Positions 49,025-64,000 of a DNA stretch of 64,000 nucleotides are shown here, piece by piece (the stretch's first letter is position 1; the number at the start of each line of letters is the position of its first letter). Origin of the DNA: an uncultured Gemmatimonadales bacterium (GTDB taxonomy: Bacteria > Gemmatimonadota > Gemmatimonadetes > Gemmatimonadales > JACORV01); the NCBI GenBank assembly GCA_963835535.1, contig CAWIFL010000002.1, positions 649,011 through 713,010 on the forward strand, read 5' to 3'. The translations under genes and the position numbers were made by a program. The notes under the pieces were generated by a model, which did no database searches, was not told the DNA's origin, and worked only from the letters and a program-made list of their open reading frames with translations.

Positions 49025-50511
49025 TCATCGGCGGGCGCCGAAAAGGCGATGCCCGGCGAAGCGGGCACAGGCCCCCAGCAGCGTCTCGTCGTCGTGGCCG
49101 ACCAGGCGAGAGAGCGCGCGCGGGGGACCGGAGACCGCCTCGCGGCACTCAAGCACGCGGTCGCGTTCCGCGTCCCTGCGCTGCGCCAGGCGCCGCGTCA
49201 CGGCCGCCTTCGGCCCGGCGACGAGGCGCGCAACCAGTGCCGCGACCGATCGGACCTGCAAGCGCCGCCCAGCCCGGCGCGCCTCGCGGTGGCAGTATGC
49301 GCCCGCGTCCGCTCGCAGCCGGCCCCGGAGCGCCCGCGCGGCCTCGGGCGGCGGGGCAGCCGCCGCGGCACGCTCCTCCAACACGCGCCACACCCGCTTC
49401 GACGCCTGGCCGTCAATCGGCCCCAAGTAGGCCTCAACGAACGCCATCCGGTCACGCTCCTGTGCCTTGGTCGGCAGCCTCGGCTCAACGTCTCGCAGAC
49501 GGCGCCCCAGGTCCTCGGCGGAGACGGCGACCTCAATGCAACCGTCCAGTTCGTGGTAGGGGAGCAGGAGTCCCTTGACCCGCTGGACGGCGTCGGTCCA
49601 GAACGTGTACACGACCCGCTTGCCCGCAGCCATCGCCTCCGCGAGCGCCGTCGTCTGGAAACCCACGACGACGTCGCTGGAAACGATCAGCTCCCGCGTG
49701 TCTGCGTCCCCGGGGAGGAGCGTCACTCGCGGCACGCCGTCGATCCGCCGATGAATCCCCTCCAGCATCTCGGCGTTGTGCTGGGGATGGGGCTTCATGA
49801 GCACCTCCACCCGCCCTTCCGCAGCGACGTTGCGGAGAACTGCCTCGGTCTCGCGATACATCGCCTCCCAAGGCCGGTGCGCAGCGCCGAGCCCCCGCTC
49901 CTCGTCGTAGGCGTCGAGGTCGTAGCACAGGAAGAGAACGCGGTGCCCCCCCCCGCCGCGCGCCGCGGCCAGCGCTCCGGATGCCGATAGTAGTCGAAGC
50001 GCGGCTGCCCGGCCACCGCAACCTGCTCAGGCTCCGCACCGGCCGCCACCCAGAACACCTTCGACTTCTCGCAGCACGTGGTCATCCAGTCGCCCTTGAA
50101 GGGGAACCACCGGCGCATCTCCCCGGCGTGCTTGGCCAGCGAGGTGGCGGAGACACCCGTCTCCTTCTGGACGACCACGAAGGGCACTCCCAGCTCGCGG
50201 CAGGCGTCGATCACGTCGCGGATGTAGAAGAACGTATCCGATGGCGAGACGAACAGCTCGAAAGGGAAGACGCGATAGAGGTCCCGCAGGAGCTCAAAGG
50301 CCAGCGTCCGGTAGCGCGTGCGCGCTTCCGCGTATTCCGCCGCGTGGTAGCGAGCGAGGTCGCTGCCCCACACGTCCCGCGGGAAAAAGCGCTCCGCCAC
50401 CCGGGCGAAGTACATCGGTGACACAGTGCGGATCACGTGCCGCCCGTCGTCCGCGAGCTGCAGCTCCACGATGTCCTGCGCGAAGTGATGGTCCAGGATG
50501 AGAACGTTCAT
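49025..50511 (-). CDS. Capsule-polysaccharide-biosynthesis-type GT-B enzyme (KpsS/KpsC-like) 2; frameshift in a C9 run
   Basis: The N-terminal ORF starts at ATG 50511 (MNVLILDHHF...SPSDTFFYIRDVIDACRELGVPFVVVQKE). The C-terminal ORF 49025-49861 contains VLMKPHPQ. The frames join exactly at the C9 run 49946-49954 (...RRAAGGG | HRVLFLCYDLDAY...). Confidence 0.45.
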
Positions 50512-50518
50512 GGCCACC

Positions 50519-52039
50519 TCAAGAACGCGCGGGAGCGACCCGCAACCCCACGAGCGAACGCAACAGCGCGCGCTCCGGCGCGTCGGTCCCGATGGTGACA
50601 AAGAGCGCGGCTGCCAAGACCAACGCCCCGCCGCCGTACGCCGCCGCGAGCACCAACGTGTCCGCCGGGCGCACGATGCTGAGGCCGCCAACCACTGCTG
50701 CGCCGATCAGCGCTGGCGGGTACGCCCTCACAAGCACCTGCTGGGCCAGCTCCTTCACACCGATGTCTAGGGTCCGCAGGCACAGCCGGAGGTAGAGGAC
50801 CGACGAGACCGAGTTGCCGACCAGAGTCCCCCACAGCACGCCGGCGATGCCCAGCCACGGGGTTGCCACGATGCTGATCAGTAGGTTCAGCCCGGTCGTC
50901 CAAACGGCGATGCGCACGATGGCGGCGATGCGGTCCATCCCTACCATCAGGTTCCAGCCGACCTGGACCAGCCCGAAGTACAGCGTGTAGACCAGCATCA
51001 GGCGGACTAGGCCGGCGTCCACGGTGAACGCCGGGCCCAGCCAGAGCCGCAACAGGGGGCGTGCCAACACCATGATCACCAGCGAGATGGGCACGGAGAT
51101 CGCCACGGAGTACTTCGTCGCCGTCATAAACAGCTTGCGCAACTGCGGCCGGTCGCCGACGGCGTAGAGCGCCGACGCCCCGGGCATGACCACCGAGCTG
51201 ATGAAGCCGGTGGCGATCAGGGCGAGGGCATGGAACCGAGCAACGACATCGTAGTGGGTCAGCGCAGTCGTGGTCATCATCACGCCGAGGATGGCCTTGT
51301 CCATCTGATTGTATACCAGCCCGTTGATGCGCAACAGCAGCATCTGGCCGGAGACCCGGGCCATCCGCATCACTGCCGGTCCCGACACCTGGCGGGAAAG
51401 GCGCAGCGACGGCAGCAGACGTCGCGCGGCGACACTCGCCGCCAGCAAGTTCGCACCCGACAGCACGAGTACCACGACCCCGAGCATTACGGCCCCCGCT
51501 CCGTTCCGAAGTGCGACCACGGCCGCCACGGCGAAGATCGTGGAGCGGGCCGCGTCGAAGGCCGCCAGCAGGTCGTAACGTTGAAGCCCTTCGATTACGC
51601 CGAGGACAGCCATGGCAGGGAATTCGATGAGCGACTGCAGCGCCATGATCGTCAATAGCACTTCGGCCGTGCGGACGAGCTCGGGCGGGATGTTGAAGGT
51701 CCGCGTAAGGAAGGCGTACGCGAAGACGAGGACGAGGAGCGCCGCGACGACGGCGATAGCGGCGAAGGCCGCCAGCGCCGCACTGAAGAGCACGTTCACG
51801 CGGTCTGTCTCGCCTCGCGCGTGGTGCTCCGCGATTTGCTTGACGAGGGCCCCTTGGATGCCCAATGAGAACAGAGAAAGGTAGCCCGCCACCGAAAACG
51901 AGAGTACGAGGACCCAGACCCCGTAGAGCGCGGCGCCGAGAGACCGGATCAGGAAGGGCGTGAGGATCACGCTGACGGCCATGCGCCAGACGAAGCCGAG
52001 CATCGTGAGCACGGAATTGCTCGCCACCCGCCTCAGCAC
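50519..52039 (-). CDS. Wzx-type polysaccharide flippase (MOP superfamily) 3
   Basis: Intact 506-aa polytopic ORF, beginning MLRRVASNSVLTMLGFVWRMAVSVILTPFLIRSLGAALYGVW. Confidence 0.75.
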   Translation of the reverse strand: MLRRVASNSVLTMLGFVWRMAVSVILTPFLIRSLGAALYGVWVLVLSFSVAGYLSLFSLGIQGALVKQIAEHHARGETDRVNVLFSAALAAFAAIAVVAALLVLVFAYAFLTRTFNIPPELVRTAEVLLTIMALQSLIEFPAMAVLGVIEGLQRYDLLAAFDAARSTIFAVAAVVALRNGAGAVMLGVVVLVLSGANLLAASVAARRLLPSLRLSRQVSGPAVMRMARVSGQMLLLRINGLVYNQMDKAILGVMMTTTALTHYDVVARFHALALIATGFISSVVMPGASALYAVGDRPQLRKLFMTATKYSVAISVPISLVIMVLARPLLRLWLGPAFTVDAGLVRLMLVYTLYFGLVQVGWNLMVGMDRIAAIVRIAVWTTGLNLLISIVATPWLGIAGVLWGTLVGNSVSSVLYLRLCLRTLDIGVKELAQQVLVRAYPPALIGAAVVGGLSIVRPADTLVLAAAYGGGALVLAAALFVTIGTDAPERALLRSLVGLRVAPARS

Positions 52040-52842
52040 GCCAGAGCCCCCCGCTTCCTCAATATGATCGTTCGCAGAAACATCCCCGGGACCGCTTCGC
52101 GAGACTCCTCGTCCTTCGCCACGTCCACGTCGCCTCGGCCCGCGAGCCAGCCCGCGTAGTCGTGATTGTAGATCCTGAAGTCGGCGCCGAGGTGCTCGAT
52201 CCCGGGTGGCTCAGACGGGTTCCGGTACTCCACGAGCACAACGTAGGCGCCGCTCACCCGCAGCAGTTCCTCGAGGCCCCGACGCGCATCCGACGCGGGG
52301 AGATGCATGATCAATGCGGACGTGAACACGACGGAGAACGAAGCGGTGCGGAACGGCAGCGCATACGCGCTGGCGCCCGCGAGCAGAGCCCGCCCGGGCG
52401 CCGAAGCGCAGCGGAGCGCGGCGACCCCGACGTCGATGCCGACGAGCTGTGCCGTGGGGACGCGCTCGGCGAGCAGCGCAAGGTTCGCGCCGAAGTTGCA
52501 GCCGACCTCAAGCACCGACGTCGGGGCGAGCGCAACGAGGTCATCCACCAGGGCGAGGCGCCGTCGGTCCGCGGCGTAGCCGCGGCGATTGCGCTCTGCC
52601 CACGCCGTCGCTGACCGCCTCCACACTGCCTCATCCTCACCCGCTCGCAGGCTGACGCCCACCCACGCGGCAATCCCGGCCTTCGCCGCACGGGCAGCGG
52701 CGCTGACGAAGAGCGTCTCCCCGGCGTAGGCCAGGGCCTCGCCGAGCCCGAGTGGGCGCCGGCAGAGCGCGTATAGGAAACGGTACGCGCGGCGCAGCGG
52801 CGTGATGCGCCGAAGACGGTCGCGCAGCGGTGCGGGCAGCAC
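52033..52842 (-). CDS. Class I SAM-dependent methyltransferase
   Basis: SAM motif I VLEVGCNFGANLALLA, with downstream IDVG and VVFTSALIMHL. Confidence 0.65.
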   Translation of the reverse strand: MLPAPLRDRLRRITPLRRAYRFLYALCRRPLGLGEALAYAGETLFVSAAARAAKAGIAAWVGVSLRAGEDEAVWRRSATAWAERNRRGYAADRRRLALVDDLVALAPTSVLEVGCNFGANLALLAERVPTAQLVGIDVGVAALRCASAPGRALLAGASAYALPFRTASFSVVFTSALIMHLPASDARRGLEELLRVSGAYVVLVEYRNPSEPPGIEHLGADFRIYNHDYAGWLAGRGDVDVAKDEESREAVPGMFLRTIILRKRGALAC

Positions 52843-53024
52843 GGTCCTACCCCGGGGCCCGGAGGGTGCGGCAGCCGGAGTTCTGCCGGATTAGGCGTTC
52901 GAACATCGTGTCCCGGCCGATGCGCGTCGAGACCTTGCGCGGCAGTCGAGTCGAGGTCGTGCGCGCCTGCGCCGGCGCTACCACCCGTCGTGCCGCGCTC
53001 ACCGCCGACCCCACCAGAGAAGCA

Positions 53025-53915
53025 TCACGCCTTGGCCCAGAGACTGGGCACGACGACCGCCTCGGGAAGATCCCGCAGCGCAGCGATCAGCGCCGTCTTG
53101 ATGTCGGGCCAGCCCGGTGGCGGCGGGCTGGAGGCGAAGGAGAGGTCCTCCTCGAGGTGCGCCATCGTGTCGACACCGAACACAATGTGGTCCGCCGGCC
53201 CGTCCAGGGCGAAGCGGAACGCCGCCTCCGCGGGAGAGATGCCGAACCGCACACAGACCCGCTGGAACGCCTTCACGAACGGCCGCGCATGCGCCAGGCG
53301 GTCCGGAACGCTGGCGGGCTCCATGACGACCAGACCCTGGCAGAACGGCGACCGTGCGTACACGCGGGTACCGCGCTCGCGCGCCCGGTCGAACACACCG
53401 GAAGCCGCGAACCGCCGGTCGAAAACCGAATACGGCAACTGCACGATGTCCTGGCCGGGGAGGAGGGCGTCGAACTCGCTCGGGAAGTAGATCGACGCCC
53501 CCACGTGCTGGCAGAGACCCCCGTCACGGGCCGCGAGCAGGGCCGCGACCATTGCGGGGTCCGCGCCGTACTGCGGCGTGTGGAACAGGATGCCGAGCGG
53601 CGACTCGGCGCTCCGCGCCAGGCGCGTGCGGCTCGCCAGGACCTCACTCGCGACCAGGCGGGGGAGGTGGTCGGGGTGCGCCGAGAGGAGCGGCAGCAGT
53701 TTCGTGGTCAGCGGCACCCCTGGTGAGACGGCGCTGCCGATGAGTTCTTCGGCCACGCCGTAGGCCGCGGCCGTGTCCAGCCCGAGCCCGGCCCGTTCCG
53801 CTGCCCGCAGCATTTCGACGCACTCCGCACGCGTCGGGGCCCGCTTCGCGTTAAGTCCGTAGCGGGTGCGGTCATGCCCTCCGAAGGCCGCAGTTCCGAG
53901 GCACAGCCGTCGCAT
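53025..53915 (-). CDS. Aldo/keto reductase family oxidoreductase
   Basis: ATG 53915 (MRRLCLGTAAFGG). LDTAAAYG motif and TIM-barrel-like periodicity. Confidence 0.65.
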   Translation of the reverse strand: MRRLCLGTAAFGGHDRTRYGLNAKRAPTRAECVEMLRAAERAGLGLDTAAAYGVAEELIGSAVSPGVPLTTKLLPLLSAHPDHLPRLVASEVLASRTRLARSAESPLGILFHTPQYGADPAMVAALLAARDGGLCQHVGASIYFPSEFDALLPGQDIVQLPYSVFDRRFAASGVFDRARERGTRVYARSPFCQGLVVMEPASVPDRLAHARPFVKAFQRVCVRFGISPAEAAFRFALDGPADHIVFGVDTMAHLEEDLSFASSPPPPGWPDIKTALIAALRDLPEAVVVPSLWAKA

Positions 53916-53991
53916 CACGCCGTCATCTCCTCCTCCAATCGGGTGGCGGCCCCCCTCGGCGCGCCGCGCTCCGGATCCAAAGCGCCCGGAC

Positions 53992-55049
53992 TCACGCCTC
54001 CCGTACGAGGGGCCAGGACAGAGGCGTACCCCGCGCGATGTCGCACGCCGCCGCCTTGCCGATGACCCCGTCCAAAAACCGGGGGGCCAATCCGTACCCC
54101 GGGCGGATCGATCGAACGTTCCTCGCCGTGAACCGCTGCCCCGCTGCCACATCCTCGACGACGTACAGGGACCGTCGGAGCACGACACTCCCTTCCTCAG
54201 CGACTCCCGGTCCGAACGTCGCACGCCCCAGCATCCCCTCCGCCCGGCGCACCTCGCGCACCAGCTCCCCGAGCTCCGCGGGCTCAAGCGAGAAATGGCT
54301 GTCCACACCCCCGTCCGAGCGCCGCAGCGTCAGGTGCTTCTCCACCAGGCAGGCGCCCAGCGCGACCGCAACCACCGGCGCTAGGTGTCCGCCGCTGTGG
54401 TCGGACAGCCCAACGAGACAGCCCGTCTCGGCGGCGAGCACGGGGATGCTGCGCAGGTTCATCGAGTCGTCGGGAGCGGGATAACTGCTCGTGCACTTGA
54501 GGATCACCACGTCAGCGACCCCTGTTTCGCGCAATACGTCGACCGCGTGCACGATCTCGTCGCGCGTCGCCATCCCCGTCGAGAGGATGACGGGCTTTCG
54601 CGTCTTCGCGACCACCCGCAGGAGTGCGTCGTCCACCAGCTCGAACGACGCGATCTTGTACGCCGGAGCCTCCAGGGCCTCCAGAAACTCCACCGCCGTG
54701 GCGTCGAACGGCGTTGAGAAGATCTCCATGCCGAGGCCGCGGGCCTCAGCGAAAAGCTCCGCGTGCCACTCCCACGGCGTGTGCGCCTCGCCATACAGAT
54801 CGTAGAGCGTCCGCCCCCCCACGGCCCGCCCCCGGGGACGACGAAGTCTGGCTTGGCGCAATCTATCGTAAGAGTGTCCGGCGTATACGTCTGCAGCTTG
54901 ATCGCGTCCACTCCCGCAGCGGCCGCGGCGCGGACGAGCTCAAGCGCGCGCTCGCGGCTTCCGTTGTGGTTGCCGGAAAGCTCGGCAACCAGGAAGGCTG
55001 GTCGCCCGTGGCCCACCGTCCGCTGGCCTATGCTAACCGTGTGTTCCAT
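53992..55049 (-). CDS. pseI: Pseudaminic acid synthase-like nonulosonate synthase (NeuB family); frameshift in a C7 run
   Basis: FLVAELSGNHNGS, DAIKLQTYTPDTLT | TLYDLYGEAHTPWEWH, YKIASFE, PVILSTGMAT, LKCTSSYPAP, GLSDHS and a C-terminal SAF domain. The two ORFs join at the C7 run 54813-54819. Confidence 0.8.
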
Positions 55050-55083
55050 ATCATGCCCGTCGTCCCCAAGAGAGCGAGAACAC

Positions 55084-57111
55084 CTAGTTCAATCGCTTGA
55101 ATGCCGCGTGACATACCGGTCCTTTCAGAAGGCTGATCGCATTCCGACCATTTTCGCACTCTGCGATCAACCCGAATACCGGATCAAGCGCCTCAAAGTA
55201 CCGATCTACAATCGAGCCGGTGTGTTCGACGCAGACATACACAGAGTCCGCCGCCAGGAATCCCTTCTTGAGCATCTCTTGCGTGAGCAAGGTCTTGTAA
55301 GCGAGTGCATTGGCGCTTTGGATAGTAAAGCCGGCCAGGGCGGGCAAGCCCCAGTGACTGATCCTGAGCCCATGCGTGTCCGCCAATTGTTGCCACCGCT
55401 TTCTGACCTGCAGCCCCATCTTGGTGATGGTCTCCCAGGACTTCGTTCGCTCCATCACATCCAGGGTCGCCAGGGCGGCAGTCGGGCCGATGCGCTCGGT
55501 CCAGAACGTGCTGCTGATGAAGGTCTCTTGGGCGGCTTCCATGACTTCACGTTTGCCAATGCACGCTGTGATGGCGTAGCCGTTGCCAAGTGCCTTGCCG
55601 AACATGGCCATATCGGGCTGTACACCGTGTTTCTTGTGCAGGCCACCGAAGGTCTCGCGGAAACCTGACGTGCATTCGTCAAAGATCAGGACAATGCCTT
55701 TGTCCGTGGCCAGCTTGCGGATCTTTTCAAGGAAGCCATCTTCCGGCGCAACGTTGCGGGACACCTCCATCATGATCACGCCGATGTCGTGCTCACGCAT
55801 CAGGCCTTCAAGTTCTGGGAAACTGTTGTAGCGGAACGGCAGCACACTGCCACGGAGGCTCCGAGGAACACCCTTAGGTTGCAGGCCCGGCAACAGATGG
55901 CCGGCGAGGTTCTCTTCGTCCCCCAGGTTGGCGGCAAGATACCAGTCATGCCAGCCGTGGTAGCCGCAAATGGCCACCTTGTCTTTTCCGGAAGCCGCAC
56001 GTGCGATCCGGATGGCGATCGCATTGGCCTCGCCGCCCGAGCGTGCCAATCTCACCATGTCGGCCCAAGGATGCATGGCGACCAAACGTTCGGCCAAATA
56101 GACCTCCTCCGGGCAGTTGAGGGTGGACATGTTGCCGGCGGCAACGGTGCGCTGCACAGCTTCGTCCACTTCCGGATGGCCGTAACCGAGGATATTCGTG
56201 CCGATGCCCATGATCGACATGTCAGTATATTCGCGCCCATCCATATCCCAGACCTTGCAGCCTTTGGCTTTGCTGAAGTAGGCGGGCCATTGTTCTGGCA
56301 AGAACATTTCGGCACGCTTTGATAGCAGCATGTTGCCACCCGGAATCACCCTTTTGGCGCGCTTCCAGAGTTTCTGTCCGGTACTCATCATCGCTCCTTC
56401 GTTGCGACTCAAGCGTTGATTGGCGGCAAAAAGGTCGGGCCTAGCCTTGCGTAATCGCATGACTTCAAGCCAAGAGAAGTCTGTGCGCAGCGCGAAACTC
56501 TCGTAGACGGCCTTGATGACCGCAAGGTCCTCCGGCTCATCGACCGTCCAGCGTTCGCCGGAACAGTCCTCCGTGTGGGAGATGTTGAGGATGCGGAATT
56601 GGCCGGATTCCCGGATATAGGTGGTGACATGCTCGCGTTCGTGCGGCTGGCCTGCCCTTTGCCACGCGGTTCGCAGGGCAGCGAATGTGAATGCCTCGGT
56701 ATCGAGACCATCCGGATAGGTGGGCGGGTTGGTATTGCAGGCGTAATCGGCGCCGCCAGCCTTCAACGGGGCAATGACGCTATCGACAATCTGAGGGTCT
56801 ATTAGCGGACAGTCGCCTGTGATGCGTACCACGATATCCGGCTCACGGACTGCGGCAGCCTGGTAATAGCGATCCAGCACATCGTCTTCGCTGCCCCGAA
56901 AGACGCTGTAGCCAAGCCTGCGAACGTGATCAACCAGCGGCTGGTTGCGAGGGTCTTGTGTGGTGGCGACCACGATCTGGTCGATCTGTTGCGATCTGGC
57001 CAGTCGTCTGAGCAACAACTCAATCATCGGCACCCCACCAATGGGTTGCATGACCTTGCTGGGGAAACGAGTTGACCCCATGCGAGCTTGGACGATGGCA
57101 AGGACTTTCAC
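55084..57111 (-). CDS. Fusion protein: SpsF/CMP-type cytidylyltransferase (N-terminal ~240 aa) plus class-III PLP aminotransferase, glutamate-1-semialdehyde aminomutase-like (C-terminal ~430 aa)
   Basis: The N-terminal domain reads MKVLAIVQARMGSTRFPSKVM...RITGDCPLID. The C-terminal domain reads ARSGGEANAIAIRIARA, DECTSGFR and MAMFGKALGNGY (PLP lysine). Intact 675-aa ORF in the lower-GC block. Confidence 0.75.
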   Translation of the reverse strand: MKVLAIVQARMGSTRFPSKVMQPIGGVPMIELLLRRLARSQQIDQIVVATTQDPRNQPLVDHVRRLGYSVFRGSEDDVLDRYYQAAAVREPDIVVRITGDCPLIDPQIVDSVIAPLKAGGADYACNTNPPTYPDGLDTEAFTFAALRTAWQRAGQPHEREHVTTYIRESGQFRILNISHTEDCSGERWTVDEPEDLAVIKAVYESFALRTDFSWLEVMRLRKARPDLFAANQRLSRNEGAMMSTGQKLWKRAKRVIPGGNMLLSKRAEMFLPEQWPAYFSKAKGCKVWDMDGREYTDMSIMGIGTNILGYGHPEVDEAVQRTVAAGNMSTLNCPEEVYLAERLVAMHPWADMVRLARSGGEANAIAIRIARAASGKDKVAICGYHGWHDWYLAANLGDEENLAGHLLPGLQPKGVPRSLRGSVLPFRYNSFPELEGLMREHDIGVIMMEVSRNVAPEDGFLEKIRKLATDKGIVLIFDECTSGFRETFGGLHKKHGVQPDMAMFGKALGNGYAITACIGKREVMEAAQETFISSTFWTERIGPTAALATLDVMERTKSWETITKMGLQVRKRWQQLADTHGLRISHWGLPALAGFTIQSANALAYKTLLTQEMLKKGFLAADSVYVCVEHTGSIVDRYFEALDPVFGLIAECENGRNAISLLKGPVCHAAFKRLN

Positions 57112-57205
57112 GCCAGCAACTGTGGGGTCCCGCCCGCCGATACCCTGGGTTGCACGGTTGAGTCTCCCATCCTCAACGAGTCTTGAGGTCGGACATTGGA
57201 TCGCA

Positions 57206-57889
57206 TCACCCAGCTGCAGGGTCCGCGCTCAGGGCACCGATGACACTCATGAAATGCCCAAGGTCGGGAATGCAATACCGCGCCTCATAGCCCGGCTTCG
57301 CCTCAGCGTTCCTGTGCGCCCCCGTGAGCACGCGGACCGTATTCATCCGGACTTCGCGCAGGCCAACAAAGTCCTTCGCCGGGTCATCTCCAACGTAGGT
57401 CATGTCCGCCCAGTCGCATCTCTCGGCCTCGCGAATGCGCTCAAAGCAATAGGTTGAAGGTTTAGCATACTGGATGCCATAACGATGAGTAATGAAGATC
57501 CGGCGGAACAGGGGCGCGATTGCCAGAGCTTCAATCTTGTGTTGCTGCACAATCTTGTGGCCATCAGTGACAACATAGAGTGGGTGGCCTTTCAGCTTTG
57601 GCAGCAAGTCCCTTGCATCTGGATAGAGCGACAGGTGTGGCGTATGATGCCGATACGCCCGCACGCATTTGTGCACCAAGCTTCTGCTATAACGACCACG
57701 CGATTCCAGCCAACGATCAAAGATCGCGCCGCGACCTTCACGATCTAGCACATCCAGCATAAAATGAAACGACGCGTCGAGGTCCCAGCCGAACAGGGCA
57801 CGACCGAAAGCCGCGACAGATCTCAGGCCGCTTTCCACGTATGCGCGTTCATCATAAAGCGTATCGTCAAGATCAAAAATCAGAACCAT
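57206..57889 (-). CDS. HAD-superfamily hydrolase/phosphatase
   Basis: ATG 57889 (MVLIFDLDDTLYDE, the DxDxT motif I). VVTDGH (motif II-like) and YVGDDPAKDF (motif IV-like). Confidence 0.7.
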   Translation of the reverse strand: MVLIFDLDDTLYDERAYVESGLRSVAAFGRALFGWDLDASFHFMLDVLDREGRGAIFDRWLESRGRYSRSLVHKCVRAYRHHTPHLSLYPDARDLLPKLKGHPLYVVTDGHKIVQQHKIEALAIAPLFRRIFITHRYGIQYAKPSTYCFERIREAERCDWADMTYVGDDPAKDFVGLREVRMNTVRVLTGAHRNAEAKPGYEARYCIPDLGHFMSVIGALSADPAAG

Positions 57890-59792
57890 AGATATGAATA
57901 TCGTCGGGGACGCGGACTTGACGCACCTCGCCAGAAATGCGGTCAAAGGGATAATCACCCAAATCTGCCCCACTGGTTTCAAGCAGGCTCCAGTAGAACA
58001 CGTCAAGCCCCGCCGCAATAGACGCCGTGGATGCACCACCAAAGCGCGTGTTACATTCGATGACGTGAATACCCTTGTGTAAATCCACCATCGCCTGCAC
58101 AACCACGGGGCCACGCACCTTCAGGGCCTGCACCACCACTCCAATCGCCGCTTCAATATCCGTATCGCGGAAGGTCGTTGTGACCTGTGACTCACCAGAC
58201 AGAACGAGGTCACGAGTGCGCAGCACGAGGGCCTTCACCTGATGGGAACGGGTTGCCCAAGCATCAATACTGATTTCGATACCTTCAAGGAACGGCTGAT
58301 AGATCGCGTCCTCCAACCTCGCGCCGTGCGCAAGTGCGGCCGCTCGGTCAAGATTGAGGCCAATTGACCGGGCACCGGCCCCATAACGCTCCTTCGCCAC
58401 ATATGGCCCCTTACCCACTTCATCAGGGTGCAGGCCCGCCGGGACGAAGGGCAACCCTCTAGCCAGGCCAAACTGCGCAAAGGCGAGCTTGTCACGGCAT
58501 GTCTCGACGCTTTCAACAGGCGAGACAACAACCTCAACGCCTTCTGCGGCAAACCGTTCTCGATTCCGGGACCAGAAAAGTAGCTCGTCATCCCGTGTTG
58601 GAATAACAACATGGATCTTGCGTCGCTTGCATCCGGCTACAAGCACCTCAATGGCAGCATCATCGAATCTTGGCGTGCGCCAGAACCCGTCAGCCACGTA
58701 GCGCGCTAGTGCGTTGTGATCGAGATCGCCGGCGATAACCTGGCTGCTAGGACTGACCCTCCGTGCGGCCTTCTGTACCGCCCGGACAAGCGGGATCTTC
58801 CTAGATGCACAGGTTACCAAGACGTTACCCAACGGCGCCGCCGCCACCTCACTGGCAGTAAGTCTTCCCATTTCATGAGCAATGACTTCCTGAATCCCAC
58901 TCTCAAGATCGTATTCAGGCACCCAGCCGACCGCCTTGCGGTATGCGGTCATGTCAGCCTGTGACGCTTCGAAGGGAATGTCAGAATTCTCTTCCCGCAC
59001 CTTCATGTTGGGGAAATGTGTGCGTAGGATGTCAACCACGTCCTGGACCGTGCGAGCACGTCCCGTACCAAGATTGAGAATACCTGCGACTGCATCGGCG
59101 TCCGCCAACCGAATCAAGCCTTCCGCCGAGTCCTTGGCGTACACGTAGTCAAACATGCCTTCTGGTCGGTAGACCGTAATTGACTCACCGGCGAGCAGCG
59201 CCCGGACCCAGCGCGAAATCACATCCCGTGAGTTGCGCCCGTAGCCACGATAAATTCGCGCACAGGCCGTCGTAAATGACTCGGCGCAAAACCTATCCAG
59301 AAAACGCAATTCAATTTCATGCGCGAACTTGGCCATACCAGTCAGATTGCGCGGCAGGACAGGGGCCGATTCCCTCAACGAAACAGGTGCGGTTTGCGGC
59401 CCATCAAACTGATACTGCGCTTGATCATAGATGAGGTAACTGGACGCGAAAACGACCCGCTTCAGAGACGGCACGCCCTTGGCGATGGTCATCAAGTGAT
59501 GGCTGAGCCGCACATTGTGCCAGTAGTTCTCTTCCCAGAAGCCATATGTCTCGGTGGAGCGTTCAAAGGTGGCGGCCAAATGGATGAACACATCGGGGGC
59601 AAAGGCCTCTAATTCACCCTTGGTTATCAGATTAAGGTCACCCTGGCGATAGCGTACCTCCTTAGCGAAGCCGGCGGGACGCGGCTTCAAGTCACCCACA
59701 AGAACCTTGGCGCCACGCGCGAGCAGCCGTGGGATCATTTCCAACCCGATTACCCCAGCACCACCGCTAACGAAGACTCGTTTGTTTTCCAT
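57873..59792 (-). CDS. Fusion protein: atypical extended-SDR domain (N-terminal ~310 aa) plus ATP-grasp ligase domain (C-terminal ~320 aa)
   Basis: The N-terminal domain has RVFVSGGAGVIG and FASSYLIY, but the YxxxK position reads PRNLTGMAK. The C-terminal domain has VLVTCASRKIPLV..., IPTRDDELLF, CRDKLAFAQF, YVAKERYGAGARSIG, QPFLEGIEISIDA and VIECNTRFGG, an ATP-grasp pattern. Confidence 0.7.
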   Translation of the reverse strand: MENKRVFVSGGAGVIGLEMIPRLLARGAKVLVGDLKPRPAGFAKEVRYRQGDLNLITKGELEAFAPDVFIHLAATFERSTETYGFWEENYWHNVRLSHHLMTIAKGVPSLKRVVFASSYLIYDQAQYQFDGPQTAPVSLRESAPVLPRNLTGMAKFAHEIELRFLDRFCAESFTTACARIYRGYGRNSRDVISRWVRALLAGESITVYRPEGMFDYVYAKDSAEGLIRLADADAVAGILNLGTGRARTVQDVVDILRTHFPNMKVREENSDIPFEASQADMTAYRKAVGWVPEYDLESGIQEVIAHEMGRLTASEVAAAPLGNVLVTCASRKIPLVRAVQKAARRVSPSSQVIAGDLDHNALARYVADGFWRTPRFDDAAIEVLVAGCKRRKIHVVIPTRDDELLFWSRNRERFAAEGVEVVVSPVESVETCRDKLAFAQFGLARGLPFVPAGLHPDEVGKGPYVAKERYGAGARSIGLNLDRAAALAHGARLEDAIYQPFLEGIEISIDAWATRSHQVKALVLRTRDLVLSGESQVTTTFRDTDIEAAIGVVVQALKVRGPVVVQAMVDLHKGIHVIECNTRFGGASTASIAAGLDVFYWSLLETSGADLGDYPFDRISGEVRQVRVPDDIHIYGSDF

Positions 59793-59800
59793 CTCTCCAT

Positions 59801-60352
59801 TTACCGTTCGTATGAACTGATGCAGCCATGCACGATCGAATCCACAGGCTGGCCATCGATTATCACGTGATGCCTTAGCGTTCCTTCTCGGCGAAAGCCC
59901 GCAGCCTCCAGCACAGCGATATGATGAGTGCGCGTCGCATAGGTTTCCGTGAAGATGCGCTCTAGTCCCAAGTCTTCAAAAGCAAGGGTCTTCATCAGCT
60001 TGAGGAATGGAGCAAAGTACCGCGTATAGTCACCTTTCCTGCCGGCCAGAAGCGGGTTCAACAGGAATGAGACTTCGGCTCGACGATGCTCCCAAGCGAT
60101 ATGTACAAGCGCGCCATATCCGATAGCAACCTCATTCTCCAGATAGATAAGAAGAATATTCCTTGGCCGCGGCACGTCCATTTCCGGCCAGACATAGGTA
60201 TCGTAGTACTCGCGTTGCTGATCAGGGGTAATGACCTCTGACTGCCGTAGGACACTCATCTGCGCGTTTCGCCACTGCCGAATGCTCTCGATATCGCTCG
60301 GCTGCACAGCCGCGAGAGCAAGCGCGCCATCTTGCAGCTTCCGCCTCGGCAT
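59801..60352 (-). CDS. GNAT N-acetyltransferase, PseH-like
   Basis: ATG 60352. LAAVQPSDIESIRQWRNAQMSVLRQSEVITPDQQREYY resembles the PseH/FlmH N-terminal signature. A GNAT core follows (IGYGALVHIAWEHRRAEVSFLL). Confidence 0.6.
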   Translation of the reverse strand: MPRRKLQDGALALAAVQPSDIESIRQWRNAQMSVLRQSEVITPDQQREYYDTYVWPEMDVPRPRNILLIYLENEVAIGYGALVHIAWEHRRAEVSFLLNPLLAGRKGDYTRYFAPFLKLMKTLAFEDLGLERIFTETYATRTHHIAVLEAAGFRREGTLRHHVIIDGQPVDSIVHGCISSYER

Positions 60353-60632
60353 ACATCTGTAGCTTCTTAGAGATTGCCCGTCCACATTGCTCCTCCAGCA
60401 CTTGGCACGTCCCGTCACGTGTCACTATACCTGCCACGTGCTCGCGCGGCGGATACAATGCGCGTCAGCGCCCCACAGCTGGCCGCCGCGGCGTGGCATC
60501 CTGACACGTCACCGAACTGTCGTATCGGCATGCGAGCTGAACTGCGCCCGCCCAAACGGCGCCCCATGGTCCGGTACCCGCCGACCTTTGCTGCGGCCAA
60601 GCTGCTTGTGGTCTGCGACCTAGCTGCTGCCC

Positions 60633-61823
60633 TCAGTGCCCGGCTGGCACTGGGGCTACGCGGCGCATCACGACCGTCAGCGCGTCGCACACGCGCGCGA
60701 CATCGGTGTCCTTCATCGCGTGGTACATCGGAATGCTGATCTCGTGCTCGTACCACCATTCGGCGTGCGGAAATTGCTGCGGGCCGTACCGCGCGAGATA
60801 GAATGGCTGCTTGTGGATCGGGATGTAGTGGACCTGCCCGCCAACACCCAGCCCCGCTAGATCGGACAGGACCTGCGCGCGGCGCTCGACGAGGACCGGG
60901 AACAGGTGATAGGCGTGCGTGCGGCCGGTCGGCTCCGCCTGCAATCCGATCCCCCGCACGCCCGCGAACGCTTCCCGGTACCGTGCCGCGATCGCACGCC
61001 GACGAGCCAGCCCAGCCTCAAAGCGCAGCAACTGGCTGGTACCGAGCGCCGCGAGGATGTCCGGCATCCGGTAATTGAAGCCGAGACGCTGCATCTCGTA
61101 CCACCAGGGACCCTCATGCCACTGCAGCCGCTGCGAGTCGCGCGTGATCCCGTGCGTGCGCAGCATCCGTGCCCGCTCAGCAAGATCCGCCCGGCTGGTC
61201 ATCACCGCCCCGCCCTCGCCGGTCGTGATGTGCTTGACCGGATGGAAGCTGAGCGTGGCGAACGCCGACGTGCTGGCGTCACCCACCTTCCTTACGCGGC
61301 CCTGTGCGTCCGTCCATGTGGCGCCGGGAGCATGGCAGGCATCCTCGATCAGTTCCACGCCGTAGCGCGAGCACAGCTCGCCGACCCGCACTAGGTCGCA
61401 CGGAAGGCCCGCGTAATGCACCACCACTACCGCCCGGAGGCGTCCCGGGCCCCGGTAGTCAGCGAGCAGCTCCTCGAGCGCTTGCGCCGACAGAAGACCT
61501 GTGTCCGGTTCCACGTCCACGAACGCGACGTCCGCGCCGCAGTATAGCGCGGCGTTGGCCGAAGCCACAAAGGTGATCGGTGGAACGACGACGACATCAC
61601 CGGGACCGATGCCGAGGGCCAGCATTCCGACGTGCAAGGCAGCAGTGCCCGAGCTCACGGCCACAGCCTCCTCAGCGCCGAACCGCTGGCACAGTGCCGT
61701 CTCGAATTGCCCAACGGCCGGGCCCTGCGTCAGCCAGTCGCCCCGCAGCACCCGAACCACCGCTTCGATGTCATCGTCGTCAATATGGTGATGCCCGTAT
61801 GGGATCACCGGCCCGTCAGTCAT
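60633..61823 (-). CDS. pseC: DegT/DnrJ/EryC1-family PLP aminotransferase, PseC-like (UDP-4-keto-6-deoxy-hexose transaminase)
   Basis: Intact 396-aa ORF. IPYGHHHIDDDDIEAVVRVLRGDWLTQGP, SSGTAALH, the SFHPVKHITTGEGG lysine motif and LRTHGI. Confidence 0.8.
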   Translation of the reverse strand: MTDGPVIPYGHHHIDDDDIEAVVRVLRGDWLTQGPAVGQFETALCQRFGAEEAVAVSSGTAALHVGMLALGIGPGDVVVVPPITFVASANAALYCGADVAFVDVEPDTGLLSAQALEELLADYRGPGRLRAVVVVHYAGLPCDLVRVGELCSRYGVELIEDACHAPGATWTDAQGRVRKVGDASTSAFATLSFHPVKHITTGEGGAVMTSRADLAERARMLRTHGITRDSQRLQWHEGPWWYEMQRLGFNYRMPDILAALGTSQLLRFEAGLARRRAIAARYREAFAGVRGIGLQAEPTGRTHAYHLFPVLVERRAQVLSDLAGLGVGGQVHYIPIHKQPFYLARYGPQQFPHAEWWYEHEISIPMYHAMKDTDVARVCDALTVVMRRVAPVPAGH

Positions 61824-62821
61824 GCGTCAATTGGCTCCGTCTCCGCTGGATCGAGGCCGAGCTCTACCAGCATGGCGCGCATCCGCTCTACGCTGAGCCA
61901 CTCCGTGTTCCGGTCGGAGGCGTACTCGAAGCGGTCCGGTACTCGCGGTGCGTCTTCATAGTTGCTCCCGTCCCAGTAATCCAGCTGGGGACAAACAACA
62001 AAGTGGTGCGGAAACTCGACGGTGCGAGGCGCGTCATCTGCCGGGATCATCAGCTCGTGTAGTTTCTCGCCCGGGCGAATGCCGACTTCGAGGATGTCGC
62101 AACCGGGAGCGACTGCCTCCACGAGGTCGAGGATCTTCATGGACGGGATCTTGGGCACGAACAGCTCACCACCGTGCATCGTGCGCGCCGCCATCAGGAC
62201 GAAGTCCACGCCGTGATCGAGGGTGATCCAGAATCGTGTCATGCGACGGTCGGTCACCGGGATTACCCCCGTCTGGCGCTGCTTGAGGAAGTAGGGGATC
62301 ACGCTGCCGCGGCTTCCCATGACGTTCCCGTATCGCACCACCGAAAAGCGGGTATTACGAGAGCCCACGTAGCTCTGCGCCGTGACGAACAACTTGTCCG
62401 AAACGAGCTTGCTCGCTCCGTACAGATTGATGGGCATCGCCGCCTTGTCAGTCGAGAGCGCCACGACACGCTCCACCCCGCAGTCAATGGCGGCGTCGAT
62501 CACGTTCATGGCGCCGTGCACGTTGGTCTTGATGCACTCGAACGGATTGTACTCCGCGATCGGCACGTGTTTCAATGCCGCCGCGTGGATCACTGTGTCG
62601 ATCCCGTGCATTGCGCGCATCAACCGGTCACGGTCACGGACGTTGCCGATGAAGAAGCGCAGCCGGGGGTCCGAGAACTCGCCAGCCATCTCGTACTGCT
62701 TGAGTTCGTCGCGGCTGTAAACCACGATGCGCTCAGGATCGTGCTCGCCCAGCATCCGGCGCACGAACGCCCTGCCGAACGACCCGGTACCGCCGGTGAC
62801 GAGGATCTGGTTCATGCTCAT
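61820..62821 (-). CDS. pseB: UDP-N-acetylglucosamine 4,6-dehydratase (inverting), PseB/FlaA1-like
   Basis: ILVTGGTGSFGRAF, HAAALKHVP, LSTDKAAMPINLYGASKL and VRYGNVMGSRGSVIP. 4-nt overlap with pseC. Confidence 0.85.
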   Translation of the reverse strand: MSMNQILVTGGTGSFGRAFVRRMLGEHDPERIVVYSRDELKQYEMAGEFSDPRLRFFIGNVRDRDRLMRAMHGIDTVIHAAALKHVPIAEYNPFECIKTNVHGAMNVIDAAIDCGVERVVALSTDKAAMPINLYGASKLVSDKLFVTAQSYVGSRNTRFSVVRYGNVMGSRGSVIPYFLKQRQTGVIPVTDRRMTRFWITLDHGVDFVLMAARTMHGGELFVPKIPSMKILDLVEAVAPGCDILEVGIRPGEKLHELMIPADDAPRTVEFPHHFVVCPQLDYWDGSNYEDAPRVPDRFEYASDRNTEWLSVERMRAMLVELGLDPAETEPIDA

Positions 62822-62831
62822 GAAGACCGGA

Positions 62832-64000
62832 CTAACCGTGAAGCGGGATCGCGTCGCGCGAGCGCTGCCCGTCGACTGTGCCGGAGCCCACCGCCTCCCC
62901 GCGCGCCCGGTCAAGATCAGGGAATAGCTTCCTCAACGATGCGGCCACATCACTATCATTGCCATCGCGCAGTGCATGTTCCCACGCCTCGACCCGGCTG
63001 CTCATCGTCGTGCCGCCGCAGCCGCCGTCGGTGAATACGAGACGCACTTTCGGGATCGCGGTCGGGCGGGTCTGCTCGTCGGGCGAGAGCAGCTGTTCAT
63101 GGAGCCGCTCTCCAGGGCGGAGACCGGTGTACACGATCCTGCCTCCGTCCCTATTGTCTAACCCAGCCAAGTGCAACAAGTTCTTCGCGAGGTCCTCGAT
63201 TCGCACCGGCTCACCCATCTCAAGCATCGCAATGCTCCCGCGCACCTCCGGCAAGAGCGAGGCTTGCAGGATCAACTGCACGGCCTCCTGGATCGTCATG
63301 AAGTACCGGGTCGCCTCGGGGTCCGTGACGGTCAGCGGCCTGCCGCTCTCCAGCTGCCTCTTGAAGATGGGGAGCACGCTTCCGTTGCTGCCAAGCACGT
63401 TGCCGAACCGGACGGCCGCGTACGTCGTGCCCTGGTGCCGTTGCCTGCAGCTCCAACACGACGAGTTCGGCGAGGCGCTTCGTCGCACCCATCACGCTCA
63501 CGGGCTGAACGGCCTTGTCGGTGCTCACGAGAACGAACTTGTCCGTGCCGTGGCGGCCCGCAGCGTCCGCCACCCGCCACGTGCCGATCACGTTGTTGCG
63601 GATAGCCTCGCGCTGGTTGCACTCCATCATCGGCACGTGCTTGTAGGCGGCGGCGTGATAGACTCGCTCCGGCCGGTGCTCGCGGAACACCCTCTCCACT
63701 GCCGCCGGATCAACGATGTCGCCGATCACCGGGACAAGGGTGAGATCGCGGGTGCTTCTCGCGCAACTCCATCCCGATGTAGAACAGATCCGTTTCGGCC
63801 TGGTCAAACAGCACCAGCGTCCCGGGGCCGTGAAGGGCAACCTGACGCGCCAGCTCCGAGCCAATGGAGCCCGCAGCGCCAGTGATCAGGACCCGCCGGC
63901 CCCGCAGGTCCGCAGCCAACTCGGGCAGAGTGAGCTGCACCGGCTCCCGCCCGAGCAGATCCTCGATTCGGACATCGCGGAGCTGATTGATACGGACGTC
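62832..64000 (-). CDS. CapD/WbpM/PglF-type polysaccharide biosynthesis dehydratase, C-terminal catalytic part; 5' end beyond the window; two frameshifts as assembled
   Basis: VLITGAAGSIGSEL, HAAAYKHVPMME, STDKAVQPVSVMGATKR and VRFGNVLGSNGSVLP are spread over three frames. Switches lie near 63748 and 63445. Confidence 0.7.

Follow-up and report, generated by a model that had tools for sequence, protein, structure and literature searches.

The window, that is, the whole 64-kb stretch of DNA that was analysed, encodes a single 675-residue protein (55084..57111, minus strand), in which an N-terminal SpsF/FlmC-type cytidylyltransferase (CT) domain is fused to a C-terminal class-III (fold-type I) PLP aminotransferase (AT3) domain. 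We tentatively propose that this CT-AT3 fusion is bifunctional, both tailoring and activating the sugar in a variant of the pseudaminic acid (Pse) pathway. It would link CMP activation to the exchange of a hydroxyl for an amino group and its N-acylation, probably at C8; we give this reading somewhat less than an even chance. The main clue to the role of the AT3 domain is a near-obligate oxidoreductase partner, either an aldo-keto reductase (AKR) or a Gfo/Idh/MocA enzyme, which the earlier note on this DNA had missed. Pseudaminic acids are surface sugars that play a part in virulence, phage recognition, and the assembly of flagella. Most of the enzymes that tailor them are uncharacterised, and CT-AT3 with its oxidoreductase is among the most widespread uncharacterised additions to the Pse pathway. 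A literature search for the Pfam pair CTP_transf_3 and Aminotran_3 found no papers, and databases at present label these proteins as “aminotransferase class III-fold enzyme” or “GSA aminomutase.”

The open reading frame runs over 675 codons from a GTG start (57109-57111) to a TAG stop (55084-55086) without an internal stop codon. As the earlier note had described, it is uninterrupted and carries both catalytic signatures, and all of the quoted motifs were found (ARMGSTRFPSKV at residues 9-20, FDECTSGFR at 477-485, and FGKALGNGY at 504-512). The two-domain assignment also holds, as both domains scored above their Pfam cutoffs: CTP_transf_3 (PF02348) matched residues 5-172 (E 2e-30, 106.6 bits against a cutoff of 22.6) and Aminotran_3 (PF00202) residues 277-580 (E 1e-39, 136.5 bits against 30.5). 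The CT domain comprises residues 1-232 (56416..57111), followed by an inter-domain linker of approximately residues 233-243 (56383..56415) and the AT3 domain of residues 244-675 (55087..56382), all on the minus strand. The AlphaFold2 model of the fusion has a mean pLDDT of 91.4 and a pTM of 0.69. Its sole internal dip, with block means of 68 and 80 at residues 231-250, encloses the linker and marks the domain boundary. In other taxa where CT and AT3 are split genes, the break point coincides with the linker position. The public annotation of the protein (P0001, 647 residues, 100% identical) begins at M29, which removes the nucleotide-binding loop; comparison with homologues supports the GTG at 57111 as the probable start instead.

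The fusion in this window is an ordinary member of its family. The best 120 database homologues are 72-78% identical, nearly all exactly 675 residues long, and contain both Pfam domains. Fusions remain collinear down to 32% identity, and collinear homologues of about 675 residues occur in more than 10 bacterial phyla. A genome scan returned 541 relatives, and 4395 relatives with E < 1e-30 were found among representatives clustered at 50% identity. A survey of fused and split arrangements, which the earlier note had suggested, found both domains in one ORF at 64 of the 80 best genomic loci and as separate genes at the other 16; in Bacteroidota and archaea, the split genes for CT and AT3 are found next to each other. 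The genes follow the canonical order PseB-PseC-(GNAT)-AKR-[CT-AT3]-PseG-PseH-PseI. Among the 39 loci having 10 kb on both sides, AKR was a neighbour in 36, PseI in 35, PseB and PseC in 31 each, and PseG in 24, while GNAT1 was detectable in 14 only. In 63 of 67 loci, the gene directly upstream of CT is that of the AKR. Minimal clusters, of which L033 is one, contain nothing beyond the Pse enzymes, GNAT1, AKR, and CT-AT3. Culturable carriers include Marinobacter persicus, Pseudosulfitobacter pseudonitzschiae SMR1 (plasmid pSMR1-1), Neptuniibacter caesariensis MED92, and Lacisediminimonas profundi.

In the AT3 domain, D478 (55678-55680), the aspartate at the pyridine nitrogen, K506 (55594-55596), the PLP lysine, both encoded on the minus strand, and T535 are invariant among 43 fusions down to 32% identity. 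The domain shares its fold and PLP-binding motifs with HemL and the GSAM-like transaminases FumI, GenB, and PctV. By Foldseek, the best structural match is FumI (6hbs, TM 0.89), ahead of GSAM; the TM scores to FumI and GSAM of 0.83-0.89 come from structural alignments at 23-28% identity only. FumI acts on a terminal CH3-CH(NH2)- group carried by a polyol chain. By sequence, the best PDB matches are GSAMs at about 140 bits. The description “GSA-aminomutase-like” in the earlier note therefore stands at the level of the fold only, because the HemL models TIGR00713, PRK00062, and PRK06209 score far below their cutoffs (185.1 against 527.3, 207.3 against 398, and 239.3 against 486 bits). Judged by these profiles, the AT3 domain is not HemL, and its genomic context is sugar biosynthesis, whereas that of HemL is tetrapyrrole synthesis.

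In other organisms, AT3 relatives are fused to AKR (P0144, P0176, and P0178) or to Gfo/Idh/MocA (GFO-AT3, P0235), and triple fusions occur as GFO-CT-AT3 (P0170) and GNAT-CT-AT3 (P0211 and P0231), the GNAT in the latter being of the extra GNAT1 type, not PseH. On a haloarchaeal plasmid, GFO, CT, and AT3 are neighbouring genes, and a CT-AKR fusion adjoins CT-AT3 in L040. The fusions of AT3 relatives to AKR, Gfo/Idh/MocA, and the extra GNAT point to tailoring of a nonulosonate in the order OH, C=O, NH2, and NHAc, from which we infer an amination step by AT3. The same oxidoreductase/transaminase logic underlies WbpB/WbpE and KdnB/KdnA (Kdo8N), in which a dehydrogenase and a transaminase replace a hydroxyl of a sugar by an amino group, in some cases with an N-acetyltransferase acting next. 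In the WbpB/WbpE pair, a Gfo/Idh/MocA-type oxidoreductase carries out the oxidation before transamination, and P0170 and P0235 have Gfo/Idh/MocA fused to AT3. WbpE, however, belongs to the DegT family, not to class III, and we know of no fused cytidylyltransferase in either system.

In the proposed pathway, a partner NAD(P)-oxidoreductase would oxidise one of the nonulosonate's secondary hydroxyls, and AT3 as a PLP-dependent transaminase would turn the resulting ketone into an amine. The usual partner would be the AKR encoded directly upstream, or a Gfo/Idh/MocA enzyme in some lineages; in this window, the candidates are the divergent AKR on the downstream side of pseI and the upstream SDR domain. 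N-acylation of the new amine would then fall to GNAT1 in many clusters and to a FemAB-like enzyme in some; in this window, the ATP-grasp ligase would take this role. The product may be an 8-amino-8-deoxy-Pse derivative (a 5,7,8-triamino-3,5,7,8,9-pentadeoxynonulosonate). The fused CT domain would make the CMP-sugar donor in place of PseF, activating this derivative for transfer to O-antigen or capsule; the amination itself could take place on the free or on the CMP-linked sugar.

C8 is the likeliest amination site by analogy with the Acinetobacter baumannii EpaA/EpaB system and with Tenacibaculum. The structural match to FumI, with its action at the end of a polyol chain, points the same way. 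A natural 8-amino-3,5,7,8,9-pentadeoxy-manno-nonulosonate occurs in the O-antigen of Flexibacter/Tenacibaculum maritimum (PMC3210612); the paper on its O-antigen cluster names no genes for this sugar (PMC9796276). The more specific idea that AKR (or Gfo/Idh/MocA) and CT-AT3, with or without GNAT1, constitute a pathway to 8-amino-8-deoxy-pseudaminic acids, with the fused CT as a gatekeeper that activates the aminated sugar only, is conceivable, and we hold it to be rather improbable. If true, triamino sugars, so far known from the one O-antigen of T. maritimum, would be widespread surface decorations, carried by Proteobacteria, Chlorobi, Cyanobacteria (Prochlorococcus, Synechococcus), SAR11, Leptospira, Bacteroidota, CPR bacteria, and haloarchaea. 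Assigning a function to CT-AT3 would set right a large number of annotations, could reveal which genes make the 8-amino nonulosonate of this fish pathogen, and could provide an enzyme for the chemoenzymatic synthesis of CMP-activated amino-Pse derivatives.

Instead of amination, the AT3 domain and the oxidoreductase could serve a stereo-inversion at an existing stereocentre, giving a Pse stereoisomer without extra nitrogen, such as 8-epi-Pse or an acinetaminic-type sugar, for which the CT would be specific. The routes would be PLP-dependent epimerisation or deamination/re-amination at the nitrogen-bearing C5 or C7, or keto-reduction at C8. We consider this alternative unlikely, with roughly one chance in six in its favour. 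A precedent is the prophage-encoded EpaA (CTP_transf_3 and Aldo_ket_red), an SpsF-type CT fused to an AKR. EpaA and EpaB (SDR) jointly turn Pse5Ac7Ac into 8-epi-Pse5Ac7Ac, as demonstrated by NMR (PMC12053666). By domain architecture, on which alone the comparison is based, CT-AT3 resembles the EpaA kind in joining CTP_transf_3 to a nonulosonate-tailoring enzyme, and the AKR domain of EpaA is of the same kind as the near-obligate neighbour of CT-AT3. CT-AT3 is not a member of this kind, however: EpaA has the AKR fused to the CT, whereas CT-AT3 has Aminotran_3 in that place and the AKR as a separate gene. No EpaB-type SDR is conserved with the CT-AT3 family, and the outcome of EpaA/EpaB is epimerisation, whereas that predicted for CT-AT3 is amination. 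A search of phage records for EpaA-like CT-AKR proteins gave no match. Epimerisation at C8 does not need a PLP enzyme, as two oxidoreductases suffice in EpaA/EpaB. The class-III fold does include racemases and epimerases, among them the PDB matches 9wrf, 6gio, and 2zuk. The papers on AciA-D do not describe the domains of AciA, AciC, or AciD. The absence of GNAT1 from most loci also favours stereo-inversion, as it indicates that an extra acetylation is not universal. Yet the fusion of AT3 to the extra GNAT1 rather than to PseH, and likewise to Gfo/Idh/MocA, would make little sense if no new amine were formed.

The surroundings of the fusion in the window belong to a Pse cluster, with PseB, PseC, and PseI above or near the cutoffs of their models. 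On the minus strand, we found PseB, the inverting UDP-GlcNAc 4,6-dehydratase (61820..62914; TIGR03589, 510.8 bits against 407.75), the aminotransferase PseC (60633..61823; TIGR03588, 466.6 bits against 423.5), a GNAT N-acetyltransferase resembling PseH and the cassette GNAT1 only weakly (59801..60418), an SDR(epimerase)-ATP-grasp fusion as an accessory tailoring enzyme (57873..59792; Pfam Epimerase, PylC-like_N, and ATP-grasp), and a HAD-family phosphatase (57206..57889), the likely start of which is M76 of the listed ORF, overlapping the stop of the upstream gene. On the other side of CT-AT3 on the same strand lie the pseudaminic acid synthase PseI (53992..55049; TIGR03586, 370.9 bits on the C-terminal part), an AKR (53025..53945; Pfam Aldo_ket_red, residues 134-390 of the ORF), and a methyltransferase resembling the Pse-associated methylase (52033..52842; TIGR03587, 57 bits, below the cutoff). 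The pseI gene is in two frames owing to a 1-nt deletion in a homopolymer run (C7 at 54814-54820), and adding one G yields a 352-residue protein. The AKR is a candidate for the oxidoreductase partner. It does not adjoin the fusion and has diverged from the cassette AKR (79 bits to that of L033). The position of its 5' end is uncertain; the ORF as listed extends to 54308 and overlaps pseI. The 64-kb window contains neither PseG nor a clear PseH; with PseG missing and pseI frameshifted as assembled, the pathway may be incomplete or inactive in the source organism.

The accessory genes of the window invite another explanation, in which AT3 aminates a small non-sugar metabolite, which an ATP-grasp, GNAT, or FemAB enzyme would join to N5, N7, or the carboxylate of Pse, possibly with later trimming by a phosphatase, while the CT activates the finished nonulosonate. 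In Campylobacter jejuni, the Cj1435-Cj1438 system works in such a side-chain-supplying manner, with an aminotransferase, a ligase of the ATP-grasp type, and a HAD phosphatase. The SDR-ATP-grasp fusion and the HAD phosphatase directly upstream of CT-AT3 fit this scheme, as do the genes for ATP-grasp, Epimerase, and Inositol_P phosphatase in L081 and those for an APH-type kinase, an HD domain protein, and an SDR beside a stand-alone AT3 in L056. Furthermore, stand-alone AT3 homologues with about 70% identity reside in catabolic-looking operons of Devosia and Flavimaricola without Pse genes, next to Amidohydro_2, a DHDPS-family enzyme, GntR, and an ABC transporter. The clade is thus not restricted to nonulosonate biosynthesis, which is compatible with a small-molecule substrate. 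We nevertheless rate the supply of a side chain as improbable, at about one chance in seven. Conservation with the fusion is seen for the AKR but not for the genes of ATP-grasp and phosphatase, which the minimal clusters lack. As conserved partners of CT-AT3, we rejected the SDR-ATP-grasp and HAD genes, which are absent from nearly all of the 80 loci; the unfused ATP-grasp and Epimerase pair with its phosphatase in L081 is a loosely similar accessory set.

The CT domain matched PDB 6OEW (“Cytidylyltransferase”) with 139 bits over residues 1-232 and Caulobacter crescentus FlmC (CCNA_02946) with 41% identity over 228 residues (E 6e-45), the homology to FlmC extending across the whole domain. B. 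subtilis SpsF is of the same type as FlmC. The putative nucleotide-binding residues R10, S13, R15, and K19 (57055-57084) and the acidic residues D100 (56812-56814), D191, and D195 (56527-56541), all on the minus strand, are invariant on alignment of the 43 fusions, down to 32% identity. We presume their roles, a nucleotide loop R-x-x-S-x-R-x-P-x-K and metal-binding acids, by analogy with KdsB. FlmC was required as the sixth enzyme for reconstitution of the Caulobacter Pse pathway, likewise devoid of a canonical PseF, in E. coli, and completed it despite “no homology to PseF” (PMC7591256). In contrast to CT-AT3, FlmC is a stand-alone protein of 238 residues without an aminotransferase domain, and the reconstituted pathway needs neither an AKR nor a class-III aminotransferase. 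On the strength of the identity to FlmC, it is well supported that the N-terminal domain is an SpsF/FlmC-type CTP:nonulosonate cytidylyltransferase doing the job of PseF, in line with the earlier suggestion of a stand-in for the missing enzyme. A second cytidylyltransferase was not found in the 64-kb window, where 52850-53086 was considered and rejected (13.6 bits, insignificant). The fused CT is also the only one in the complete clusters of L033 and plasmid pSMR1-1 (PseB, C, G, H, and I present), and 62 of the 74 clusters having a CT match have no other within 10 kb.

Could the CT domain instead act on another substrate, or be a CMP-sugar-binding module for AT3, with PseF encoded elsewhere? 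We regard this as quite improbable, at about one chance in ten. Neither the canonical PseF model (TIGR03584) nor the NeuA model matched the isolated N-terminal domain at E <= 1e-5, where only KdsB-type models appeared, and weakly (77 bits against a cutoff of 255), and the view of the genome is limited to 64 kb. About a dozen loci have a second SpsF-type CT, located after pseI in L003, L004, L021, L030, L035, L036, and L066, so that the fused CT there need not be the only activating enzyme, and L040 has two CT-containing fusions. Against this stand the function of the homologue FlmC in the reconstituted pathway, the scarcity of other CTs in the clusters, and the invariance of the putative nucleotide- and metal-binding residues in diverse fusions, which argues against a degenerate binding module. 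Finally, an artefactual merger of two neighbouring genes by a sequencing or assembly indel is effectively refuted: several apparent indel frameshifts occur in the window (pseI, a second PseB-like gene, a transferase-like gene, and wzz), but more than 100 homologues from independent assemblies are collinear and equally long (675 residues), the linker length is conserved, and most genomic loci have both domains in one ORF.

Genuine as the fusion is, the substrate channelling that the earlier note had read from it is not supported as stated. It does not follow from the fusion, since the domains are separate genes at a fifth of the loci; the pTM of 0.69 gives no fixed inter-domain geometry; and the same aminotransferase has other fusion partners in other organisms.

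A similar gene set has been described in group I of the Aeromonas flagellin glycosylation islands, pseB-pseC-AKR-pseF-class III aminotransferase-pseG-(pseH)-pseI (PMC7874193). Judged from gene order and description, not from sequences, it has the order of the canonical CT-AT3 loci, and it shares with L033 a Pse context with Maf and flagellin. It differs in that its description gives pseF and the aminotransferase a gene each, and its AKR and aminotransferase have no assigned function. The Aeromonas glycans are known as masses only, e.g., 403 Da in AH-1 (PMC4691044), and assigning a function to CT-AT3 would explain such undefined flagellin glycan masses. We rejected the flagellin islands PA1088-PA1091 of P. 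aeruginosa and CD0241-CD0244 of C. difficile as nucleotidyltransferase-aminotransferase relatives; PA1088 is a methyltransferase, and synthesis of CDP-threonine is predicted for PA1090, an enzyme of the CD0242 type (PMC11833859). Some subgroups of Aeromonas group I also contain HAD hydrolase and methyltransferase accessory genes (PMC7874193).

The fusion is encoded on the minus strand (55084..57111) as a single uninterrupted frame of 675 residues with a GTG start, joining a cytidylyltransferase domain (CT, residues 1-232) to a class-III aminotransferase domain (AT3, residues 244-675). The CT domain contains ARMGSTRFPSKV at residues 9-20, and the AT3 domain carries the motifs FDECTSGFR (residues 477-485) and FGKALGNGY (residues 504-512). 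With both Pfam domains far over the gathering threshold, CTP_transf_3 at residues 5-172 (E 2e-30) and Aminotran_3 at residues 277-580 (E 1e-39), the two-domain fusion that the earlier note had read from these motifs is real. The AlphaFold2 model, built from 43 homologues, has a mean pLDDT of 91.4, and its sole internal dip, at about residues 231-250 between the two Pfam domains, marks the linker. The pTM of 0.69 is the kind of value expected when each of two domains is well folded but neither is held in a fixed position relative to the other. Substrate channelling, also proposed in that note, is neither supported nor excluded. The public version of the protein (P0001, 100% identical, 647 residues) starts at M29 (57025-57027), and so lacks the nucleotide-binding loop with its invariant R10, S13, R15 and K19; the start favoured by the homologues is the GTG at 57109-57111.

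The protein is a typical representative of a very large family that carries generic annotation and has not been characterised functionally, not even for a single fused member. The best 120 database homologues share 72-78% identity, are nearly all exactly 675 residues long and have both Pfam domains. Among 1.84 billion cluster representatives, 4395 matched below E 1e-30, and about half of the top 150 matches are fusions of about 680 residues, with identity down to 33%. Scanning one genome per species yielded 541 relatives, and both domains reside in one ORF in 64 of the best 80 loci. Fusions of this single-ORF kind were seen in Alpha-, Beta-, Gamma- and Deltaproteobacteria (including SAR11 and SAR116), Chlorobi, Verrucomicrobia, Leptospira, Gemmatimonadota, Chitinophagaceae, Saccharibacteria, one Acidimicrobium MAG and the cyanobacteria Moorena, Synechococcus and Prochlorococcus. 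Separate adjoining genes are found in Mucilaginibacter, Sphingobacterium, Pedobacter and Cryptobacteroides, one Lachnospiraceae genome, one Kaiserbacteria MAG, one Methanobrevibacter MAG and, as neighbouring genes, on a Halorussus plasmid. Across 43 aligned fusions with identity down to 32%, R10, S13, R15, K19, D100, D191 and D195 of the CT domain are invariant, as are D478, K506 and T535, among others, of the AT3 domain. The catalytic residues of the CT domain have not been lost, and this conservation suggests that both halves are under selection as enzymes.

Gene order is strikingly constant in the related loci, PseB-PseC-(GNAT1)-AKR-CT-AT3-PseG-PseH-PseI, where AKR is an aldo-keto reductase and GNAT1 an acetyltransferase distinct from PseH of the pseudaminic acid (Pse) pathway. 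Of 39 loci with 10 kb on either side, 36 have AKR, 35 have PseI, 31 have PseB, 31 have PseC and 24 have PseG; GNAT1 could be detected in just 14. AKR lies immediately upstream of CT in 63 of 67 loci. A split form of the arrangement is found in group I flagellin glycosylation islands of Aeromonas, pseB-pseC-AKR-pseF-class III aminotransferase-pseG-(pseH)-pseI, in which the AKR and the aminotransferase were given no function (PMC7874193). Aeromonas AH-1, bearing an undefined 403-Da Pse-like glycan (PMC4691044), is assigned to the small-island class of the island study, Group I or III, with the subgroup not stated. Legionella pneumophila serogroups 6 and 12 have adjoining "GSA aminomutase" and "acylneuraminate cytidylyltransferase" genes together with PseG and AKR (PMC3694923). 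In Vibrio and Moritella, an SpsF-like CT fused to AKR "may be replacing NeuA" (PMC7371886).

The aminotransferase had been called GSA-aminomutase-like, which holds at the level of the fold only: HemL models, whose cutoffs are 398-527 bits, reach only 185-239, and solved GSAMs show 24-28% identity in structural alignments. By structure, the aminopentol aminotransferase FumI ranks first (TM 0.89), ahead of GSAMs, an omega-transaminase, PctV and GenB3. The best hint of function lies in the domain fusions that relatives carry, namely AKR-AT3 (P0144, P0176, P0178), Gfo/Idh/MocA-AT3 (P0235), Gfo/Idh/MocA-CT-AT3 (P0170) and GNAT-CT-AT3 (P0211, P0231). The fused AKR matches the AKR of the cassette, and the fused GNAT resembles GNAT1 by sequence match, not PseH. 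On the Halorussus plasmid, a Gfo/Idh/MocA gene occupies the AKR slot ahead of the CT and AT3 genes, and a FemAB-family protein (TIGR04421) takes the usual GNAT1 position in locus L003 (7811-8884). Two unrelated oxidoreductase families thus appear to interchange beside AT3, with an N-acyltransferase dedicated to it. In the simplest reading, the oxidoreductase would convert a hydroxyl to a ketone, AT3 would transaminate the ketone to an amine, and the N-acyltransferase would acylate the new amine. The slot between PseC and AKR/AT3 varies among loci; in Rhodoferax (7317-9854 of L056), an HD-domain protein, an SDR and an APH-type kinase precede a stand-alone AT3, within 10 kb of which no SpsF-type CT was found.

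The hydroxyl aminated by such a module may be that of C8, for which two published facts speak and, as a weaker point, a likeness to FumI, whose substrate is a polyol chain ending in CH3-CH(NH2)-, a group that would resemble C9-C8 of 8-amino-Pse. Firstly, the prophage genes epaA and epaB of A. baumannii convert Pse5Ac7Ac to its 8-epimer, as found by capsule NMR; EpaA is a CTP_transf_3 and Aldo_ket_red fusion and EpaB an SDR (PMC12053666). Experiment therefore backs the combination of an SpsF-like CT with an AKR, be it as a fusion or as a pair, as a C8-tailoring and activating unit. EpaA is likened to CT-AT3 by domain architecture only, and proteins of the CT-AT3 kind are best described as nonulosonate-tailoring enzymes fused to an SpsF/FlmC-type cytidylyltransferase, a kind for which EpaA is the example with a characterised function. 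Stereo-inversion, adding no new nitrogen, remains a rival to amination. Secondly, a natural 8-amino nonulosonate, 5-acetamido-7-(3-hydroxybutyramido)-8-amino-3,5,7,8,9-pentadeoxy-nonulosonic acid of manno configuration, occurs in the O-antigen of Flexibacter (Tenacibaculum) maritimum (PMC3210612), and nothing was known of its genes according to a 2022 study (PMC9796276). That the family makes up the route to 8-amino-pseudaminic acids that has so far been lacking, and that such sugars are widespread, is a tentative and rather doubtful extension of the C8 proposal.

The window locus serves O-antigen or capsule synthesis and is centred on a Pse. Its minus-strand genes encode, in order, PseB (TIGR03589 above cutoff), PseC (TIGR03588 above cutoff), a GNAT, a 639-residue SDR(epimerase)-ATP-grasp fusion, a HAD phosphatase whose gene overlaps the latter (pair within 57206-59792), CT-AT3, PseI (53992-55049), AKR, a methyltransferase akin to a Pse-associated methylase and a Wzx-like flippase; a hexapeptide acetyltransferase, Wzz fragments, an O-antigen ligase/polymerase-like protein and GT4 glycosyltransferases lie further downstream. 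The SDR-ATP-grasp and HAD genes, which are outside the conserved core of related loci, may form an amide-forming tailoring module; in locus L081, a comparable set of separate genes (ATP-grasp, epimerase, inositol-phosphatase-type phosphatase, PIG-L deacetylase) comes after the CT-AT3 gene. That AT3 supplies an aminated side chain for ATP-grasp, GNAT or FemAB enzymes remains a second rival. Against oxidation, transamination and acylation of the Pse stand the displaced and divergent AKR of the window, the failure to find PseG in the 64 kb, where PseB, PseC and PseI do occur, and the frameshift in pseI as assembled; a clear PseH was likewise not found in the window. The infrequency of GNAT1 also counts against it, as do stand-alone homologues, sharing about 70% identity with the AT3 domain of the window protein, that lie in operons of Devosia and Flavimaricola without Pse genes nearby (L076 7800-12800, L079, L073). 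Flanking genes there encode an Amidohydro_2 protein, a DHDPS-family enzyme, a GntR regulator and an ABC transporter; in Devosia L076 the products include a DHDPS-family lyase, a GntR/FCD regulator and a peptide/opine-type ABC transporter beside Amidohydro_2 and a ureidoglycolate-lyase-like protein. Together with Amidohydro_2-AT3 fusions (P0173, P0216), these operons suggest that the AT3 clade also has a part in the apparent catabolism of sugar acids or amino compounds, and the Devosia and Flavimaricola proteins may be a catabolic branch of it.

The CT domain is not a canonical PseF, as PseF and NeuA models gave no match to it and only weak KdsB-type matches were obtained. It is of the SpsF/FlmC type, and the closest structure solved, 6OEW, was deposited simply as "Cytidylyltransferase". 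FlmC, the non-canonical Pse cytidylyltransferase of Caulobacter and sixth enzyme of a reconstituted Pse pathway, whose sequence is part of the synthetic operon supplied with PMC7591256, shares 41% identity with the CT domain over 228 residues (E 6e-45). The complete clusters of Marinobacter (L033, a flagellar context with Maf and flagellin) and Pseudosulfitobacter plasmid pSMR1-1 (a polysaccharide context) hold every Pse enzyme but PseF and no other CT, and a second cytidylyltransferase was not found in the 64-kb window. Because of the FlmC homology and these clusters, the CT domain quite probably replaces PseF, as the earlier note had proposed. That it is not the Pse-activating enzyme remains a third rival, and the caveat lies in about a dozen loci with an extra stand-alone SpsF-type CT after pseI, e.g., L003 (14683-17675), L035 (16880-19862), L004, L021, L030, L036 and L066, and in a second CT domain in L040. 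After the extra CT there usually come a Gfo/Idh/MocA oxidoreductase and a DegT aminotransferase, in this order in L003 and with the Gfo/Idh/MocA gene confirmed in L035, and the three make up a second set of CT, oxidoreductase and aminotransferase in the same cluster. In L040 (3337-7067), from a Chitinophagaceae MAG, a 566-residue CT-AKR fusion of EpaA-like architecture lies directly upstream of CT-AT3, so that the tandem genes encode two cytidylyltransferase domains.

The pseI gene of the window is in two frames owing to a 1-nt deletion in the homopolymer at 54814-54820 (C7 on the plus strand, G7 in the gene), and one added G restores the full 352-residue PseI; the frameshift is either a sequencing error or real and possibly a phase-variable inactivation. 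Three further genes are apparently split over overlapping or adjacent ORFs that differ in frame, a second PseB/FnlA-like dehydratase (62832-63864), a gene like [quoted passage not shown] (49025-50691) and a Wzz chain-length determinant in a Wzz and a GNVR half (45605-46691). Four disrupted genes within about 20 kb suggest an indel-prone assembly or a decaying locus. The G+C content falls to 57-63% at about 54000-60000, spanning the CT-AT3, HAD, SDR-ATP-grasp and GNAT genes, compared with 65-73% over most of the remaining window, which suggests horizontal acquisition of part of the cluster.
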